DNA of 62,214 nucleotides, counting the filler. It is 5 parts of 5 records of this genome, joined end to end, with 100 filler letters (N's around TTAATTAATTAA, not from the genome) between each part and the next. Parts side by side here need not be neighbours in the genome. Positions count along the whole stretch, not along the records: positions 53,954 to 58,527 come from SRR20825010_4315; 4 more parts are not named here. One strand, given 5' to 3'. This document shows, piece by piece, positions 15,154 through 58,627 of the stretch (positions are counted from its first letter, which is position 1; every line of letters starts with the position of its first letter). Under the pieces are notes generated by a model. The model was not told the origin of the DNA, did no database searches, and worked only from the letters and a program-made list of their open reading frames with translations. The position numbers were made by a program, and so were the translations under genes.

Positions 15154-15253
15154 NNNNNNNNNNNNNNNNNNNNNNNNNNNNNNNNNNNNNNNNNNNNTTA
15201 ATTAATTAANNNNNNNNNNNNNNNNNNNNNNNNNNNNNNNNNNNNNNNNNNNN
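15154..15253. other. Artificial contig spacer
   Basis: N run with a central TTAATTAATTAA (stops in all frames). Confidence 0.99.
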
Positions 15254-38221: not shown

Positions 38222-38321
38222 NNNNNNNNNNNNNNNNNNNNNNNNNNNNNNNNNNNNNNNNNNNNTTAATTAATTAANNNNNNNNNNNNNNNNNNNNNNN
38301 NNNNNNNNNNNNNNNNNNNNN
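38222..38321. other. Artificial contig spacer
   Basis: N run plus TTAATTAATTAA. Confidence 0.99.
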
Positions 38322-53853: not shown

Positions 53854-53953
53854 NNNNNNNNNNNNNNNNNNNNNNNNNNNNNNNNNNNNNNNNNNNNTTA
53901 ATTAATTAANNNNNNNNNNNNNNNNNNNNNNNNNNNNNNNNNNNNNNNNNNNN
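53854..53953. other. Artificial contig spacer
   Basis: N run plus TTAATTAATTAA; base composition switches from AT-rich to GC-rich. Confidence 0.99.
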
Positions 53954-54218
53954 CCTCGAAGGTATAGCCGTGATCGAGATGGGCCACGACCGGAACGGAC
54001 GCGTTTTCAGCCAGGTGCCGGAACATCTTGCCAAGGATCGGCAGCGGCGTGTGCGCCCGGCACGACGGGCCGGCCTGCAGGATCACCGGCAGGCCCTCGG
54101 CTTCGGCGGCGGCCACATAGGCGCGCATGTCCTCCCAGCCGAGCGTCACCAGGCCTGCCACCGCATAGCCGCCCCTGAGCGCCGGCTGCAGAACATCGGC
54201 GAGCGTGGCGATGCTCAT
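53954..54218 (-). CDS. Class II aldolase (IolJ-like), 3' truncated
   Basis: MSIATLADVL...PVILQAG...VPVVAHLDHG; ATGA overlap with the iolB stop. Confidence 0.85.
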
Positions 54219-55057
54219 TTGAACTTCGCCACCATGTCCTTGATGCCCGGAATCGTCTCGATCTGGTAGGCATGGGTGGGCTGGAAATACTGGATCAGCG
54301 AGCGCTGGCTCAACCCGCCCAGAATGGTGAAATAATACATCTCGTAGCCCGGCAGCACGCAGCACGGGTGGTAGCCCTTGTCGAGGCAGATCGTCGATCC
54401 GTCGACGATGTGGTAGGCGTCGCCCGGCTTGTTGTCCTCGCGCTGCAGCATCTGCACCCCGGAGCCATGATTGGGCCGGAAGCGGAAATTGTAGGTCTCA
54501 TCATGCCGGGTTTCGATCGGCAGCCGGTCGGTGTCGTGCTTGTGGCTCGGAAAACCCGACCAGCCGCCCTGCCCGACAGTGAACAGTTCGCTGACCAGCA
54601 GCCGGCCCACCTTGCCGTGGTGCTTCTGGCCGAGAATGTGCTTGATCTTGCGGTGCGTCTTAGTGTCGTCGGAACCGTACTGCACCAGGTCGAGCCCGTC
54701 GGCGCGCACGTCGAACGGCTCGAGCACCTTGTCGTACTTGGCGCCGGCGATGAAGGTCTCGGTCTGATCGGACACGCAGACAATCGTCACCTTCGCGCCG
54801 ACCGGCACATAGACGCCCTCGGGCTCTCCGTCCCAGACATCGACGCCGCGATTGCCGAGCCTGGCGAAGGAAACACCTTCGACACTGACATCGACCGTGC
54901 CGGTGGCGGGCACGATGCAGGTCTCGTAACCGGGCACCTGGTACTCGAACGCCTGGCCCTTCCTGAGCTTGACGATGTTGAAATAGTTCAGCGGAACACA
55001 GGCGTTCTCGACATCCACGATCGGCTTGTTCTGGTTGTCATAGGGCGCGATATGCAT
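54215..55057 (-). CDS. iolB: 5-deoxy-glucuronate isomerase
   Basis: GWSGFPSHKHD, HDETYNFR and KGYHP..LPGYEMYY motifs. Confidence 0.92.
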   Translation of the reverse strand: MHIAPYDNQNKPIVDVENACVPLNYFNIVKLRKGQAFEYQVPGYETCIVPATGTVDVSVEGVSFARLGNRGVDVWDGEPEGVYVPVGAKVTIVCVSDQTETFIAGAKYDKVLEPFDVRADGLDLVQYGSDDTKTHRKIKHILGQKHHGKVGRLLVSELFTVGQGGWSGFPSHKHDTDRLPIETRHDETYNFRFRPNHGSGVQMLQREDNKPGDAYHIVDGSTICLDKGYHPCCVLPGYEMYYFTILGGLSQRSLIQYFQPTHAYQIETIPGIKDMVAKFK

Positions 55058-55086: not shown

Positions 55087-56067
55087 TCAGACATGGGTCG
55101 GGCCGGGATGGGATGTGAGGAAGGCCTCAAGTTGTTCAGTGTCGGGCATCGCCGGGGCGCAGCCGGGCCGGGAGACGACGATAGAGGCGCAGGCCGATCC
55201 GCGCAGCACGGCGTCACGAATGTCCCGGCCTTCCGACAGCGAGGCCAGCAGGCCCGCCATGAAACTGTCGCCCGCACCGGTCGGCTTGAATGCGGTGACC
55301 GGATAGATCCCGGTGCGGATTTCATCGCCGTCCGAAAACGTCACAGCCCCCTCGGGGCCCATCTTGTAGACCACGATTGCCGCACTGGACCCGGCCAGCT
55401 CGCGCGCCTTGGCGAGCCCCTTGTCGACGCCGCCGGCCATAAAGCCGAATTCCTCGTCATTGCCGACAATGACATCGGCAAGACTGCCCGCGCGCGACAA
55501 CACCTCTTCGGCGACCGCAGGCGAGGCCCACGAATAGGGCCGGTAATCGACGTCGAAGATGATCGGCAGCCCGGCCGCCCGCGCCAGTTCGAAGGCCCGG
55601 AATGCAGCCGAGCGCGACGGCTCGGCGGCAAACACCGTGCCCGCCGTGATCAACGCGCCGTAACGCGCGTAGTCCACCGCCTCGACATCGGCGAGGCTCA
55701 TCTGGAAGTCGGCCGCATTGTTGCGATAGATGACGCTCTGATGTTCCTCGATGCGGGTCTCGTAGACCGCCAGCGACGTCCGGTATTCGCCGGTGATCTT
55801 TTTCACGTGGCTGCTATCGACGCCGTAGTGATCGAGCTGGTTGAGACAATACCAGCCGACGGCATCGTCCGAGACCGAAGTCACCAGCGCCGCCTTGCAG
55901 CCGAACTTGACCAGGCCGGCGGCGATGTTGGCGCTCGATCCGCCCATCGCCACCATCATCGAACTTGCGTCCCGCGTGCGGGTGCCCGCGGGATCGGGCG
56001 ACAGATCCATCCCGACCCGGCCGATGACGAGAAAATTGCGGGCCTTGATGCCGTCGAGAACGCTCAT
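55087..56067 (-). CDS. iolC: 5-dehydro-2-deoxygluconokinase (PfkB family)
   Basis: IGRVGMDL, GGSSANIA, YRNNAAD, DVDYRPYSW and GAGDSF motifs. Confidence 0.9.
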   Translation of the reverse strand: MSVLDGIKARNFLVIGRVGMDLSPDPAGTRTRDASSMMVAMGGSSANIAAGLVKFGCKAALVTSVSDDAVGWYCLNQLDHYGVDSSHVKKITGEYRTSLAVYETRIEEHQSVIYRNNAADFQMSLADVEAVDYARYGALITAGTVFAAEPSRSAAFRAFELARAAGLPIIFDVDYRPYSWASPAVAEEVLSRAGSLADVIVGNDEEFGFMAGGVDKGLAKARELAGSSAAIVVYKMGPEGAVTFSDGDEIRTGIYPVTAFKPTGAGDSFMAGLLASLSEGRDIRDAVLRGSACASIVVSRPGCAPAMPDTEQLEAFLTSHPGPTHV

Positions 56068-56903
56068 GCCCGGCCTTCCGCATTGCCGGCGCGCGCCGCA
56101 TCGAGCACTTCCGGATAGGGATAATTAAGCCCCAGAAGCTGGCGCATGTCGGGGCTCGCCGCATCGAGGAATGACTGCGGCAGCGCCGCGGGCATATCCT
56201 CCATCGGCTTGACCCATTTGGGCAGGTACTGGATCAGGATGGCGCTGCGGTCGTGGTCCGACCGGTTGGGCATGGCGCAATGCCAGGTGACGCCGTAAAA
56301 CAACGCCACGTCGCCGGGTTGGCCCAGCATTCGCTCGCATCGCTCGTAGAAGCGATCCTCGGTCACCGGATAGCGCAGCTGCTTCTGGCTTCCAGGCACG
56401 TAAGCCGTGGCGCCGCTTTCCTCGGTGAACGGATCGAGGATCACCGAGACCTGGGCATTCATCGGAAACGAGCCGTTGAAGCCCACCGGATGGGTCTCGG
56501 GCTCGTGGAAATCCCAGTAGGGATAGTCGACATGCGGCTCCTGCCCCGGCCCGCCCGGCAGGATCCGGTTGGCGGCGATCGAGCCCATGATGAATTCGGT
56601 GCCGAGGAACTTGCGCAGGATGTCCATCAGCACCGGATGCGCCGCCATCCTCGAGAACACCTCACCCTTGGCGAGCAGGTTCCAGACCCGGCGCTGCAGG
56701 CTAATCCTGCCCTCCTGCTCTGCCGCGCCCTGGAAATGCGTGACCTTCTCACCCTCGTTCTCCGAATGCGCCATGACGATGGCGCGGGCTTCGGCAATAT
56801 CCTGAGGCGTGAACAGGCCGGAGATGGCGACGGCGCCGCCGCCATTGAGCAATTCCTCGATGATCGTGTCCGGATCGGCCGTGTGCGCGGTAAAGCGTTT
56901 CAT
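56064..56903 (-). CDS. PhyH-family Fe(II)/2-oxoglutarate dioxygenase
   Basis: RVWNL, PGQEPHVD (HxD), GAT..PGSQ, PGD, WH...NRSDHDR. The start MKRFTA sits 1 nt after the iolD stop and the stop overlaps the iolC ATG. Confidence 0.9.
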   Translation of the reverse strand: MKRFTAHTADPDTIIEELLNGGGAVAISGLFTPQDIAEARAIVMAHSENEGEKVTHFQGAAEQEGRISLQRRVWNLLAKGEVFSRMAAHPVLMDILRKFLGTEFIMGSIAANRILPGGPGQEPHVDYPYWDFHEPETHPVGFNGSFPMNAQVSVILDPFTEESGATAYVPGSQKQLRYPVTEDRFYERCERMLGQPGDVALFYGVTWHCAMPNRSDHDRSAILIQYLPKWVKPMEDMPAALPQSFLDAASPDMRQLLGLNYPYPEVLDAARAGNAEGRA

Positions 56904-56904
56904 C

Positions 56905-58527
56905 TCAGACACCCTTGCGCTGTTTGGCGCGGGAGGATTCCACCTCTTCATGCGCAGCGCGGACCTTGGCGTTGCCGGTGACATGCGGCGTGCCGACTTC
57001 CCACCATGCATGGCCTTCGGTGGTCCAGCCGTCATAGGCATCGACCTTCATGACGATGACATGGGTCTTTGAGCTCGCCTTGGCGCGCTTGAAAGCCTCG
57101 CCCAGTTCCGCCGGGTTGGAGACGGTTTCGGCAATCGCGCCCATCGCCGCCGCATGCGCCTCGAAATCGACCGCGAAGGGCTCGGCGACGGTGGGGCAAT
57201 CGGCGATCAGGTTGTTGAAGCTCTCGTTGCCGGTGTTGTTCTGCAGCTTGTTGATGACGGCAAAGCCGCCATTGTCGAGCACCAGGATGATCAGCTTGCG
57301 GTCGCTCAGCACCGAGGAATAGATGTCGGAATTCATCAGCAGGTAGGAGCCGTCGCCGACGAAGACGATGGTGTCCCTGTCCGGCTCGCGCTCGAACTGC
57401 GCGATGCGCGCGCCCCAGCCGCCGGCGATCTCGTAGCCCATGCAGGAAAAGCCGAATTCGACGTCGACCGTGCCGATATCGAGCGTGCGCCAGTTGGCGG
57501 TGACTTCCGCCGGCAGCCCGCCTGCGGCGGTGACAACCCGGTCGCGGGCATCGCAGAGCGCGTTGACCACGCCGATGGCCTGCGCATAGGAGTTAGGCCG
57601 GTTGCCATGCGCCACATTGCCCGCGACATAGGCGTCCCAGGCCTTGCGCTGGGCTTGCGCGAAGCCGGTCCAGTCCGCCGGTGTCGTGTAGCCGCCCAGC
57701 GCCGCATCGAGCGCTTCGATTCCGAGTTTCGCGTCGCCGACCACCGGCAACGAGAGATGCTTGGATGCATCGTGCCGCGCGGCATTAAGGGAAACCAGTT
57801 TCGCCGCCTTTTCGAAGGCGGTCCAGGAGCCGGTGGTGAAATCCTGCAGCCTTGTGCCGATGGCGATGATCACGTCGGCCTTCTCTGCAACCGCGTTGGC
57901 GCTGTCCGACCCGGTGACGCCGACCGGGCCGATGTTGAGCGGATGATCATTGAGCAAGTTCGCCCGCCCGGCGATGGTCTCGATCACCGGGATCTGACGG
58001 GCTTCGGCGAAGGCGGTCAGCTCATTGACCGCACGCGAATACTGCACGCCGCCGCCGGCGATGATCACCGGCCGTTTGGCCGATGCGATTGCCGCCGCGG
58101 CGTCTGCGATTTCGCTCGCATCCGGAGCCTGGCGGCGGATCCGGTGCAGCTTCCTGGCAAACAGCTCGACCGGGTAGTCATAGGCCCAGCCCTGCACATC
58201 CTGCGGCAGGCCGAGGAACGCCGGGCCGCAATCGGCGGGATCGAGCATGGTGGCGATCGCCGCGGGCAGCGATTGGATGATCTGCGCCGGATGGGTGATC
58301 CGGTCCCAGTAGCGGCTCACCGGTTTGAAAGCGTCGTTCAGCCCCATGACCGGGTTGCCGAAATGCTCGAGCTGCTGCAGCACCGGGTCGGGCAGCCTTG
58401 TGAGGAAGATGTCGCCGCACAGCATCAGCACCGGCAGCCGGTTGGCATGCGCCAGCGCCGCCGACGTCAAGAGGTTGGCCGTCCCCGGCCCCGCCGACGC
58501 CGTGCAGAACATGAAGCGCTGCCTGAG
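56905..58527 (-). CDS. iolD: 3D-(3,5/4)-trihydroxycyclohexane-1,2-dione acylhydrolase, 5' partial
   Basis: PDPVLQQLE, GTRLQDFTTGS, EFGFSCMGYEIAG, GDGSYLLMNS and WWEVG motifs. Confidence 0.95.
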   Translation of the reverse strand, partial: LRQRFMFCTASAGPGTANLLTSAALAHANRLPVLMLCGDIFLTRLPDPVLQQLEHFGNPVMGLNDAFKPVSRYWDRITHPAQIIQSLPAAIATMLDPADCGPAFLGLPQDVQGWAYDYPVELFARKLHRIRRQAPDASEIADAAAAIASAKRPVIIAGGGVQYSRAVNELTAFAEARQIPVIETIAGRANLLNDHPLNIGPVGVTGSDSANAVAEKADVIIAIGTRLQDFTTGSWTAFEKAAKLVSLNAARHDASKHLSLPVVGDAKLGIEALDAALGGYTTPADWTGFAQAQRKAWDAYVAGNVAHGNRPNSYAQAIGVVNALCDARDRVVTAAGGLPAEVTANWRTLDIGTVDVEFGFSCMGYEIAGGWGARIAQFEREPDRDTIVFVGDGSYLLMNSDIYSSVLSDRKLIILVLDNGGFAVINKLQNNTGNESFNNLIADCPTVAEPFAVDFEAHAAAMGAIAETVSNPAELGEAFKRAKASSKTHVIVMKVDAYDGWTTEGHAWWEVGTPHVTGNAKVRAAHEEVESSRAKQRKGV

Positions 58528-58627
58528 NNNNNNNNNNNNNNNNNNNNNNNNNNNNNNNNNNNNNNNNNNNNTTAATTAATTAANNNNNNNNNNNNNNNNN
58601 NNNNNNNNNNNNNNNNNNNNNNNNNNN
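58528..58627. other. Artificial contig spacer
   Basis: N run plus TTAATTAATTAA. Confidence 0.99.

Follow-up and report, generated by a model that had tools for sequence, protein, structure and literature searches.

A conserved gene for a PhyH-family Fe(II)/2-oxoglutarate dioxygenase in an inositol catabolic operon: a candidate for an undescribed oxygenase step

A stretch of DNA of 62,214 nucleotides (the window) was analysed, in which positions 56064..56903 on the minus strand hold a gene for a PhyH-family Fe(II)/2-oxoglutarate (2OG) dioxygenase of 279 aa located within an operon for inositol catabolism (iol). The gene is a translationally coupled, same-strand and conserved member of the iol operon; its catalytic apparatus is intact, it is dispensable for the core cluster, and its subfamily is found recurrently beside cyclitol genes. 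As judged from the sequences, an undescribed oxygenase step attached to inositol catabolism appears well supported. Tentatively, and at somewhat less than an even chance, the enzyme is read here as a one-step adapter that would convert an atypical cyclitol (deoxy-, methyl-, amino- or other) into an ordinary pathway intermediate. To our knowledge, inositol catabolism has been treated as an oxygenase-free pathway. Full-text searches gave no paper linking PhyH or 2OG dioxygenases to iol catabolism, and searches for PhyH together with SAR11 gave passing mentions only in the accessible portions of the texts. In the available part of a large genomic survey of iol clusters (PMC9430895) the sole oxygenase mentioned is the fungal inositol oxygenase, and the available part of the GapMind paper (PMC9007349), according to which Phaeobacter inhibens can grow on myo-inositol by means of an IolJ-type cluster, names no oxygenase step.

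The PhyH gene lies on the fourth of the five contigs joined in the window, a Hoeflea-like contig (53954-58527, 4574 bp), all genes of which are on the minus strand in the order iolD-phyH-iolC-iolB-iolJ. The iolD stop codon (56905-56907) is followed by the single base 56904 and then by the PhyH start codon ATG (56903-56901), and the PhyH stop codon (56066-56064) overlaps the iolC ATG (56067-56065) by 4 nt (ATGA). The gap of 1 nt on one side and the overlap on the other had both been given in the original prediction and were found as described. An alternative PhyH ATG at 57041 would overlap iolD, and the start at 56903 yields 279 aa, in keeping with the 278-280 aa of the best 120 database relatives.

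Profile, fold and residues were used for the family assignment of the protein. The PF05721 (PhyH) profile was matched with 85.7 bits against a cut-off of 22 and over profile positions 5-213 of 213, and Pfam detected PhyH alone in this gene. The HxD part of the iron-binding triad (H124-V125-D126) is encoded at 56526..56534, the third iron ligand H208 at 56280..56282 and R219, which by family analogy we take to be the binder of the 2OG C5 carboxylate, at 56247..56249, all on the minus strand. In an alignment of 41 sequences with 29-97% identity, H124 and D126 never vary, and H208 and R219 are each conserved in at least 90% of the sequences, in agreement with the intact HxD...H triad and distal Arg claimed at the outset. 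An AlphaFold2 model (predicted local distance difference test 91.8, predicted template modelling (TM) score 0.90) predicts a double-stranded beta-helix of the PhyH-type fold, with Foldseek TM values of 0.72-0.78 to solved PhyH-type structures (0.68-0.69 for three of the matches listed) and a best structural superposition at Z 28.9 and a root-mean-square deviation (rmsd) of 2.2 Å over 248 aligned residues. The predicted protein thus combines the profile, the fold, the HxD...H triad and the basic residue for 2OG of the PhyH family. A signal peptide was not obvious at the N-terminus, as judged by eye, which suggests a cytoplasmic enzyme.

The protein search gave 1158 proteins with E ≤ 0.001 among 5240 candidates, the best 120 of which were listed. 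The best matches were proteins of Hoeflea named 'phytanoyl-CoA dioxygenase family' (97%, 93% and 91% identical, the first from Hoeflea sp.), followed at 81-86% by proteins of Ruegeria, Aliiroseovarius, Sulfitobacter, Shimia, Parasedimentitalea and others. At E ≤ 1e-30 the subfamily comprises 62 clusters (50% identity) among 1.84 billion representatives. Searches by fold and by features returned generic PhyH-type matches and names only and gave no substrate clue. A YPYW stretch after the HxD motif was considered as a sugar- or cation-binding aromatic cage and was dropped, as the aligned PrhA has a similar YPWW.

For the analysis of conservation, contigs of one genome per species were searched for relatives; 218 stretches were obtained, and the best 80 (77-99% identical) were used with 10-kb flanks. 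Every one of these 80 orthologous loci, which come from Hoeflea, Ruegeria, Shimia, Sulfitobacter, Cohaesibacter and others, is located in an iol cluster, so that the neighbourhood linkage of PhyH and iol genes on which the original prediction had been made to depend is present throughout. IolD is immediately upstream of PhyH in 77 of the 80 loci, and two of the remaining three start at a contig end; in locus L068, PhyH is the first gene of the operon, beside divergent GFO1 and IolE-like genes and with a different IolD 7 kb away, and is still inside the iol cluster. IolC is immediately downstream in 79 of 80 loci, the last of which ends 142 nt past PhyH. In 73 of 76 loci, no more than 3 nt separate the iolD stop from the start of phyH, and the phyH stop overlaps or lies within 20 nt of the projected iolC start in all 79. 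The median identity to the window proteins is 82.6% for PhyH, 82.5% for IolB, 86.4% for IolJ, 79.5% for IolD and 70.0% for IolC. As the value for PhyH is at the level of IolB and IolD, purifying selection on PhyH is as strong as on the core enzymes.

The neighbouring genes in the window, all on the minus strand, were assigned as follows. The iolD gene (3D-(3,5/4)-trihydroxycyclohexane-1,2-dione hydrolase; 56905..58527) matched TIGR04377 with 680 bits over model positions 77-616, its 5' end being cut by the contig end. The iolC gene (5-dehydro-2-deoxygluconokinase; 55087..56067, TIGR04382 328 bits, cut-off 300) encodes a stand-alone PfkB protein without DUF2090, PfkB being the only domain detected by Pfam. 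The iolB gene (5-deoxy-glucuronate isomerase; 54215..55057) matched the KduI/IolB family PF04962 with 251 bits and TIGR04378 with 145 bits, below the cut-off of 205. A class II aldolase gene similar to iolJ (53955..54218, PF01116 65.8 bits) is present with its first 88 codons, the contig end having removed the 3' part. Its ATG and the iolB stop overlap (ATGA), and the complete gene was found in relatives.

The iol operon is only partial on this contig, and the loci of Ruegeria halocynthiae and Hoeflea sp. Naph1 served for reading the complete cluster. One arm consists of a GFO/IDH/MocA dehydrogenase (GFO2), an IolE-like dehydratase and a second dehydrogenase (GFO1); the other is iolD-phyH-iolC-iolB-iolJ-iolG, with IolG at 431-432 bits and above the cut-off. 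In Ruegeria and in 39-44 of 60 long loci, an inositol-type ATP-binding cassette (ABC) transporter and a LacI regulator are located on the first arm; neither was found within the 20-kb Hoeflea locus. The binding protein of the cluster resembles the rhizopine binding protein (NF052284 270 bits, below the cut-off of 420). GFO1 is close to a Paracoccus scyllo-inositol dehydrogenase (312 bits to 5ya8), an enzyme type described in the available part of PMC5969746. The structures nearest to GFO2 are 7d5m, 3dty and 3v5n, all uncharacterised, as the same part of that paper states for 3dty and 3v5n. The IolE-like dehydratase matched TIGR04379 over the whole model with 177-179 bits, below the cut-off of 290 (locus L019, 5990-7102; locus L010, 5914-6876). 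Matches below the curated IolE cut-off were also obtained in the alphaproteobacterium G058 and in loci L068 and L164, forming a divergent IolE lineage. Replacement of IolE by PhyH was rejected, as an IolE-like gene is present in the PhyH-bearing clusters examined for it; in the comparison of 60 long loci, its family was found in 46. Ruegeria halocynthiae additionally carries a second IolD (genome G002, contig C30, 35358-37187; locus L144), which is 54% identical to the first and has its own IolE-like gene and ABC transporter.

The composition of the cluster bears on one alternative, according to which the enzyme would be an NAD-independent oxidase of an unsubstituted inositol stereoisomer that IolG, GFO1 and GFO2 cannot oxidise, hydroxylating a carbinol C-H to a gem-diol and hence giving an inosose. 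This alternative shares the context evidence of the adapter reading, and the clusters are without an IolI-type inosose isomerase, their only AP_endonuc_2 protein being the IolE-like one; it is nevertheless considered improbable, given three dehydrogenases already in the cluster and the waste of 2OG where NAD-dependent enzymes normally suffice.

The distribution of the gene was analysed in two even samples of genomes. In 301 genomes of the family of Ruegeria (Rhodobacteraceae), IolD was found in 169 (165 above the curated cut-off) and a PhyH ortholog, 70-86% identical, in 12; all 12 are IolD-positive, and PhyH and IolD are adjacent in the six genomes for which both coordinates were listed. Internal stops were found in none of these 12 orthologs, and Ruegeria halocynthiae is the only one of the 12 genomes with two IolD matches. 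In a class-wide sample of 401 genomes, an ortholog above 61% identity occurred in the seed genome only. Among 18 IolD loci taken from the family sample, seven hold the same cluster gene for gene (12 other genes, 59-89% identical to the Ruegeria cluster) with iolD leading directly into iolC and without PhyH. That the core inositol pathway needs no oxygenase, as had been stated from general knowledge beforehand, is supported by these seven otherwise identical clusters, and the PhyH gene is accessory. For a test of co-variation in 10-kb flanks, all-against-all clustering of 1197 open reading frames was applied to the seven PhyH-less loci and to 60 PhyH-bearing loci, each at least 15 kb long. Of the 13 widespread gene families, 12 were core genes and the other was PhyH, which was called in 56 of the 60 PhyH-bearing and in none of the seven PhyH-less loci; the next family was present in 8 of 60 only.

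In a tree of IolD, the PhyH-less clusters are scattered within the PhyH-bearing clade, and at least four changes are forced by well-supported branches (the IolD and PhyH trees were both calculated with FastTree, rooted at the midpoint and provided with local Shimodaira-Hasegawa-like supports only). The sister branch is the IolD of G058, which is likewise PhyH-linked. The tree crosses taxonomy, with Hoeflea, Notoacmeibacter and Polycladidibacter nested among roseobacters. The simplest reading would be that the association is old, that the cluster spread as a whole by transfer and that PhyH was lost repeatedly; as the sampling of loci was biased towards PhyH-bearing ones, the direction of change (loss or gain) is not proven by this tree. 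Repeated loss, together with the scattered PhyH-less clusters, is also what would be expected if the gene were a decaying or functionless passenger of the operon, a view that the intact frames, the uniform length, the invariant catalytic residues and the conservation equal to that of IolB and IolD make very improbable. In an RNA library (run X17), a contig of a relative joins 56069 to 56899; the 829 nt skipped correspond almost exactly to the PhyH gene and the break lies at the gene borders, and thus a PhyH-less form of the operon also exists in a close relative.

Relatives with 40-60% identity adjoin inositol-type genes in at least five other arrangements. One of these was found in G058, a 2.3-Mb alphaproteobacterium with a GC content of 0.40 and a PhyH protein 59% identical to that of the window (loci L122, 7976-17551, and L148, 167-7365). 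Its co-directional row of genes starts with IolD (804 bits), a GFO dehydrogenase and an IlvD-type dehydratase (L-arabinonate dehydratase model, 951 bits), continues with an SMP-30 lactonase, a xylose-1-dehydrogenase-like SDR, an HpaI/GarL-type aldolase and PhyH, and ends with a CoA-acylating malonate/methylmalonate semialdehyde dehydrogenase (IolA, 685 bits). Genes for GFO1 (scyllo-inositol-dehydrogenase-like), an IolE-like protein, LacI, IolG and an inositol-type ABC transporter adjoin the row. The whole genome yielded neither an IolB-family gene nor a kinase above the IolC cut-off, and IolJ is missing from it as well, the operon having SDR, lactonase, dehydratase and aldolase instead. G058 appears to replace IolB, IolC and IolJ by an oxidative, non-phosphorylative branch, yet retains PhyH. 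Its genes are consistent with an undescribed branch from 5-deoxy-glucuronate via 5-deoxy-glucarate and 4-hydroxy-2-oxohexanedioate to pyruvate and malonate semialdehyde. As G058 swaps the lower branch and keeps PhyH, we argue that the link of PhyH would be with the upper pathway.

Further arrangements were found in metagenomes. In group A (five contigs, GC 0.38, the full arrangement being seen in the longer ones), an inositol-type ABC transporter is followed by iolC-iolB-class II aldolase-PhyH, with canonical iolE (381 bits), iolD (913 bits) and iolC-DUF2090 as neighbours. On the low-GC marine contig L152 (3999-14176), a stand-alone PfkB kinase and a class II aldolase occur with IolB and PhyH, adjoining an IolC-DUF2090 fusion with canonical IolD and IolE, i.e., two kinase/aldolase solutions on one contig. 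Locus L164 (GC 0.63) holds IolE-like, GFO2-like, an ABC transporter, IolD (774 bits), PhyH (50% identical) and an IclR regulator. Group B comprises about 40 ocean contigs (GC 0.25-0.35) with a CUT2 ABC transporter, PhyH, sometimes SDR/EamA, and a GFO/IDH/MocA dehydrogenase; in L178 (1634-12999), a cut IolD and a rhizopine/inositol-type binding protein lie upstream. A low-GC lineage with this ABC-PhyH-GFO module appears to be abundant in ocean metagenomes. The ocean module occurs among L155-L200 (e.g., L169, 462-4911) with ribF downstream in the longer contigs; in L169, a class I tRNA synthetase gene and lspA come after ribF. In L123, PhyH is beside a dehydrogenase 56% identical to GFO2 and a peptide/opine-type ABC transporter. 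In L129 (8576-15267) and L202 (4686-12734), PhyH is present in tandem in three to five copies (40-44% identity to the query), together with an IolG-like dehydrogenase; L129, as annotated with Pfam, additionally holds an AP_endonuc_2 protein, an amidase, a HIBADH-like reductase and two FAD oxidases. The layout of these two loci recalls opine- or rhizopine-type catabolic islands. Flanks of at least 1 kb were available for 44 metagenome loci. Within 5 kb, 38 of these have iol core genes (6), GFO dehydrogenases (27) or CUT2 ABC components (22), and the other six have none of the three. The predicted linkage therefore extends to distant relatives, which recur beside genes for IolD, IolE-like proteins, GFO/IDH/MocA dehydrogenases and inositol-type ABC transporters.

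The positions of PhyH in these rows are relevant for a second alternative, in which the enzyme would act on a pathway intermediate (scyllo-inosose, the IolE diketone, 5-deoxy-glucuronate or 2-deoxy-5-keto-gluconate) in an O2-dependent shunt or in the repair of side products, for example by re-hydroxylating the deoxy carbon or by turning an inosose into a diketone openable by IolD. PhyH stands right after IolD both in the 77 orthologous loci and in the distant L164, last in the iolC-iolB-iolJ operon of group A and between aldolase and IolA in G058, and in L120 and L128 it is beside sugar-acid-type dehydratases and aldolases. Against this, the phosphorylative branch of the window cluster and the oxidative branch of G058 are complete on paper without a hydroxylase, as far as the presumed pathway logic goes; a shunt product would require enzymes missing from the cluster, most of the ocean ABC-PhyH-GFO contigs are without nearby lower-pathway genes, and PhyH-less clusters are common. 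Action on an intermediate is regarded as unlikely.

We infer the adapter function because an intact, selected oxygenase is co-translated with iol genes whose core cluster exists without it, and because its relatives adjoin genes for inositol transport, first oxidation and ring opening whichever lower branch follows. An atypical cyclitol that is not handled by the NAD-dependent dehydrogenases, such as a deoxy-inositol, a C- or O-methyl inositol, an inosamine or an unusual stereoisomer, would enter via the inositol-type ABC transporter of the cluster. The cytoplasmic Fe(II)/2OG oxygenase would then oxidise one C-H of the substrate using O2 and 2OG, and the product, an ordinary inositol or inosose, would be degraded by IolG or the scyllo-inositol dehydrogenase, IolE, IolD, IolB, IolC and IolJ. 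Since the product would already be a substrate of the pathway, a single added gene would suffice and no co-varying gene would be expected. We infer likewise the entry position of the step, the direction of the reaction and the substrate class. No class among O-methyl, amino and deoxy cyclitols is favoured over another; chemically, an oxygenase would be hardest to replace at a C-methyl group or at the unactivated C-H of a deoxy-inositol. Candidate compounds from the sea are cyclohexanetetrol of Pavlova-type haptophytes, proto-quercitol of thraustochytrids and laminitol and mytilitol of algae and mussels. The original prediction of an undescribed entry step into the iol pathway is accordingly kept as far as an intact oxygenase coupled into the operon is concerned, and no particular substrate class is attached to it.

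Several observations weigh against an adapter for special cyclitols. In the comparison of 60 with seven loci, no transporter, binding protein or other family specific to PhyH-bearing clusters was found, so that a special substrate would have to share the ordinary inositol transporter. Loss of O-methyl or amino groups positioned beta to a ketone might proceed by dehydrogenation and IolE-type elimination, without an oxygenase. According to the available part of PMC9788770, an Erwinia strain degrades pinitol via iol genes, and both of its candidate demethylase genes can be deleted; the O-demethylation proposed for the entry of O-methyl cyclitols may therefore be unnecessary. PhyH has no constant partner, being located after iolD in the window and L164, after iolJ in group A and before iolA in G058. 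The metagenome loci are not independent, as most of them are from the one low-GC lineage of group B. L119 and L121 (57-61% identical) are without nearby sugar genes and beside MmcB-like and caspase-like genes, and L120 (58%) is found with an enolase-superfamily dehydratase, a DHDPS-like gene, an RraA-like aldolase and a TRAP transporter; the subfamily is therefore not confined to cyclitols. Other contexts were found for L124-L128, and in the PhyH tree cyclitol-linked lineages occur in both major halves with non-cyclitol ones interspersed.

These non-cyclitol contexts (L119, L120, L121, L124-L128) are in line with a third alternative, co-regulation with the iol genes of an enzyme whose substrate is chemically unrelated to cyclitols, e.g., an amino-acid-like osmolyte; so are the tandem copies with amidase and FAD oxidases in L129 and L202 and the name 'ectoine hydroxylase-related' given to these proteins by JGI. 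An unrelated substrate is nonetheless judged distinctly unlikely, since PhyH has kept its place in the operon in all 80 loci even though transfer between families occurred repeatedly, independent associations with cyclitol genes recur, and no specific NCBIfam model was matched, the sole match being TIGR04436 with 27.5 bits against a cut-off of 200.

Known systems were compared with the adapter proposed here. The nearest solved relatives are fungal PhyH-type oxygenases (FtmOx1, PrhA, AusE, AsqJ, SptF, TlxJ and OkaE), which share the HxD...H triad; TlxJ (E 2.4e-9) and PrhA (E 1.4e-8) are nearest by sequence, and the structural matches have Z 28-29 and rmsd 2.1-2.6 Å over about 250 residues. With an identity of only 18-25%, and with large hydrophobic terpenoid or alkaloid substrates in biosynthesis as opposed to a bacterial operon for sugar-alcohol catabolism, these natural-product enzymes are uninformative on the substrate of PhyH. 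The kanamycin B dioxygenase KanJ acts on a heteroatom-bearing carbon of a sugar-like ring and yields a ketone, and it had been put forward beforehand as an analogue. It has the same PhyH-type fold (Z 23.4, rmsd 2.8 Å, 236 aligned residues, 21% identity), but its Z is the lowest among the 50 structure matches listed, compared with 28.9 for the best match, and the sequence kinship is marginal (E 0.004, 19.6 bits, no single stretch passing). KanJ belongs to aminoglycoside biosynthesis, whereas the neighbours of the window gene are iol catabolic genes, and the suggested analogy was reduced to a distant relationship. The ectoine hydroxylase EctD, to which the JGI name refers, is a PhyH-family enzyme with a small polar osmolyte as substrate. 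No NCBIfam ectoine-hydroxylase model was matched at E ≤ 0.001, and no ect genes were found in the 20-kb loci of Ruegeria halocynthiae and Hoeflea sp. Naph1. An ortholog of KanJ or EctD was ruled out by the marginal KanJ match, the missing EctD model and the iol context.

The closest functional analogies may be MocDEF and the 2OG-dependent sulfoquinovose dioxygenase SqoD. MocD, MocE and MocF of Sinorhizobium form a demethylase for the rhizopine 3-O-methyl-scyllo-inosamine, composed of a desaturase-like oxygenase and a Rieske ferredoxin. The likeness lies in the oxygen-dependent removal of a cyclitol substituent that opens use by the iol pathway; the enzyme class is another one, the window gene being PhyH only. 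SqoD is of the taurine dioxygenase-type 2OG-oxygenase family and cleaves the C-S bond of a sulfosugar. As in the present proposal, a 2OG oxygenase of sugar catabolism removes a substituent in one step and ordinary enzymes follow, according to the available parts of PMC10507154 and PMC12951627. Inositol oxygenase (MIOX), the only well-known oxygenase of inositol catabolism and the one mentioned in the part of PMC9430895 available, differs in that the clusters described here retain the complete IolG/E/D route. The compared systems differ also in chemistry: MIOX is a di-iron enzyme of unrelated fold that cleaves the ring to glucuronate.

Somewhat less firmly than the adapter function itself, an undescribed class of cyclitol oxygenases can be envisaged, comprising hydroxylases, demethylases or deaminases of deoxy-, methyl- or amino-cyclitols from marine algae, protists and invertebrates, which would feed the iol pathway in roseobacters and marine Rhizobiales and, via ABC-PhyH-GFO, in a low-GC ocean lineage. 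If this holds true, a new enzyme activity and a new route for the marine osmolyte pool would result. A conserved 2OG oxygenase in an iol operon points to a cyclitol-related substrate or reaction missing from pathway maps, and its identification would assign a function to a subfamily labelled merely 'phytanoyl-CoA dioxygenase family'. It could also add a compound to the algal and animal osmolytes consumed by marine bacteria and could provide cyclitol chemistry with an enzyme for regio- and stereoselective C-H oxidation. The natural sister clusters with and without PhyH make genetic testing unusually easy, and the gene, with its predicted function, would be a well-supported target for enzyme discovery.

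The window (1-62214) is not one molecule: its five contigs are joined by spacers of the form N44-TTAATTAATTAA-N44, located at 15154-15253, 38222-38321, 53854-53953 and 58528-58627. In 2-kb windows, the GC content of the contigs is in order about 0.31-0.37, 0.42-0.47, 0.28-0.37, 0.64 and 0.59-0.61, i.e., 0.64 for the iol contig and 0.28-0.47 for the three contigs preceding it. Given these very different values, the assembly probably represents a mixed bin, in which the iol contig and the low-GC contigs need not come from one shared organism. A scan of the iol contig for promoters and terminators gave one promoter-like site (0.7 expected by chance) and one terminator-like site on the opposite strand (2.9 expected). 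Contigs of RNA libraries, which are no proof of transcription, match parts of the iol contig with 85-95% identity, e.g., 56085-56339 in one salt-marsh run. The named relatives are marine, and 28-66% of the sampled 31-mers of the iol contig were found in metagenome runs from groundwater, soil, hot springs, cold springs and sludge.

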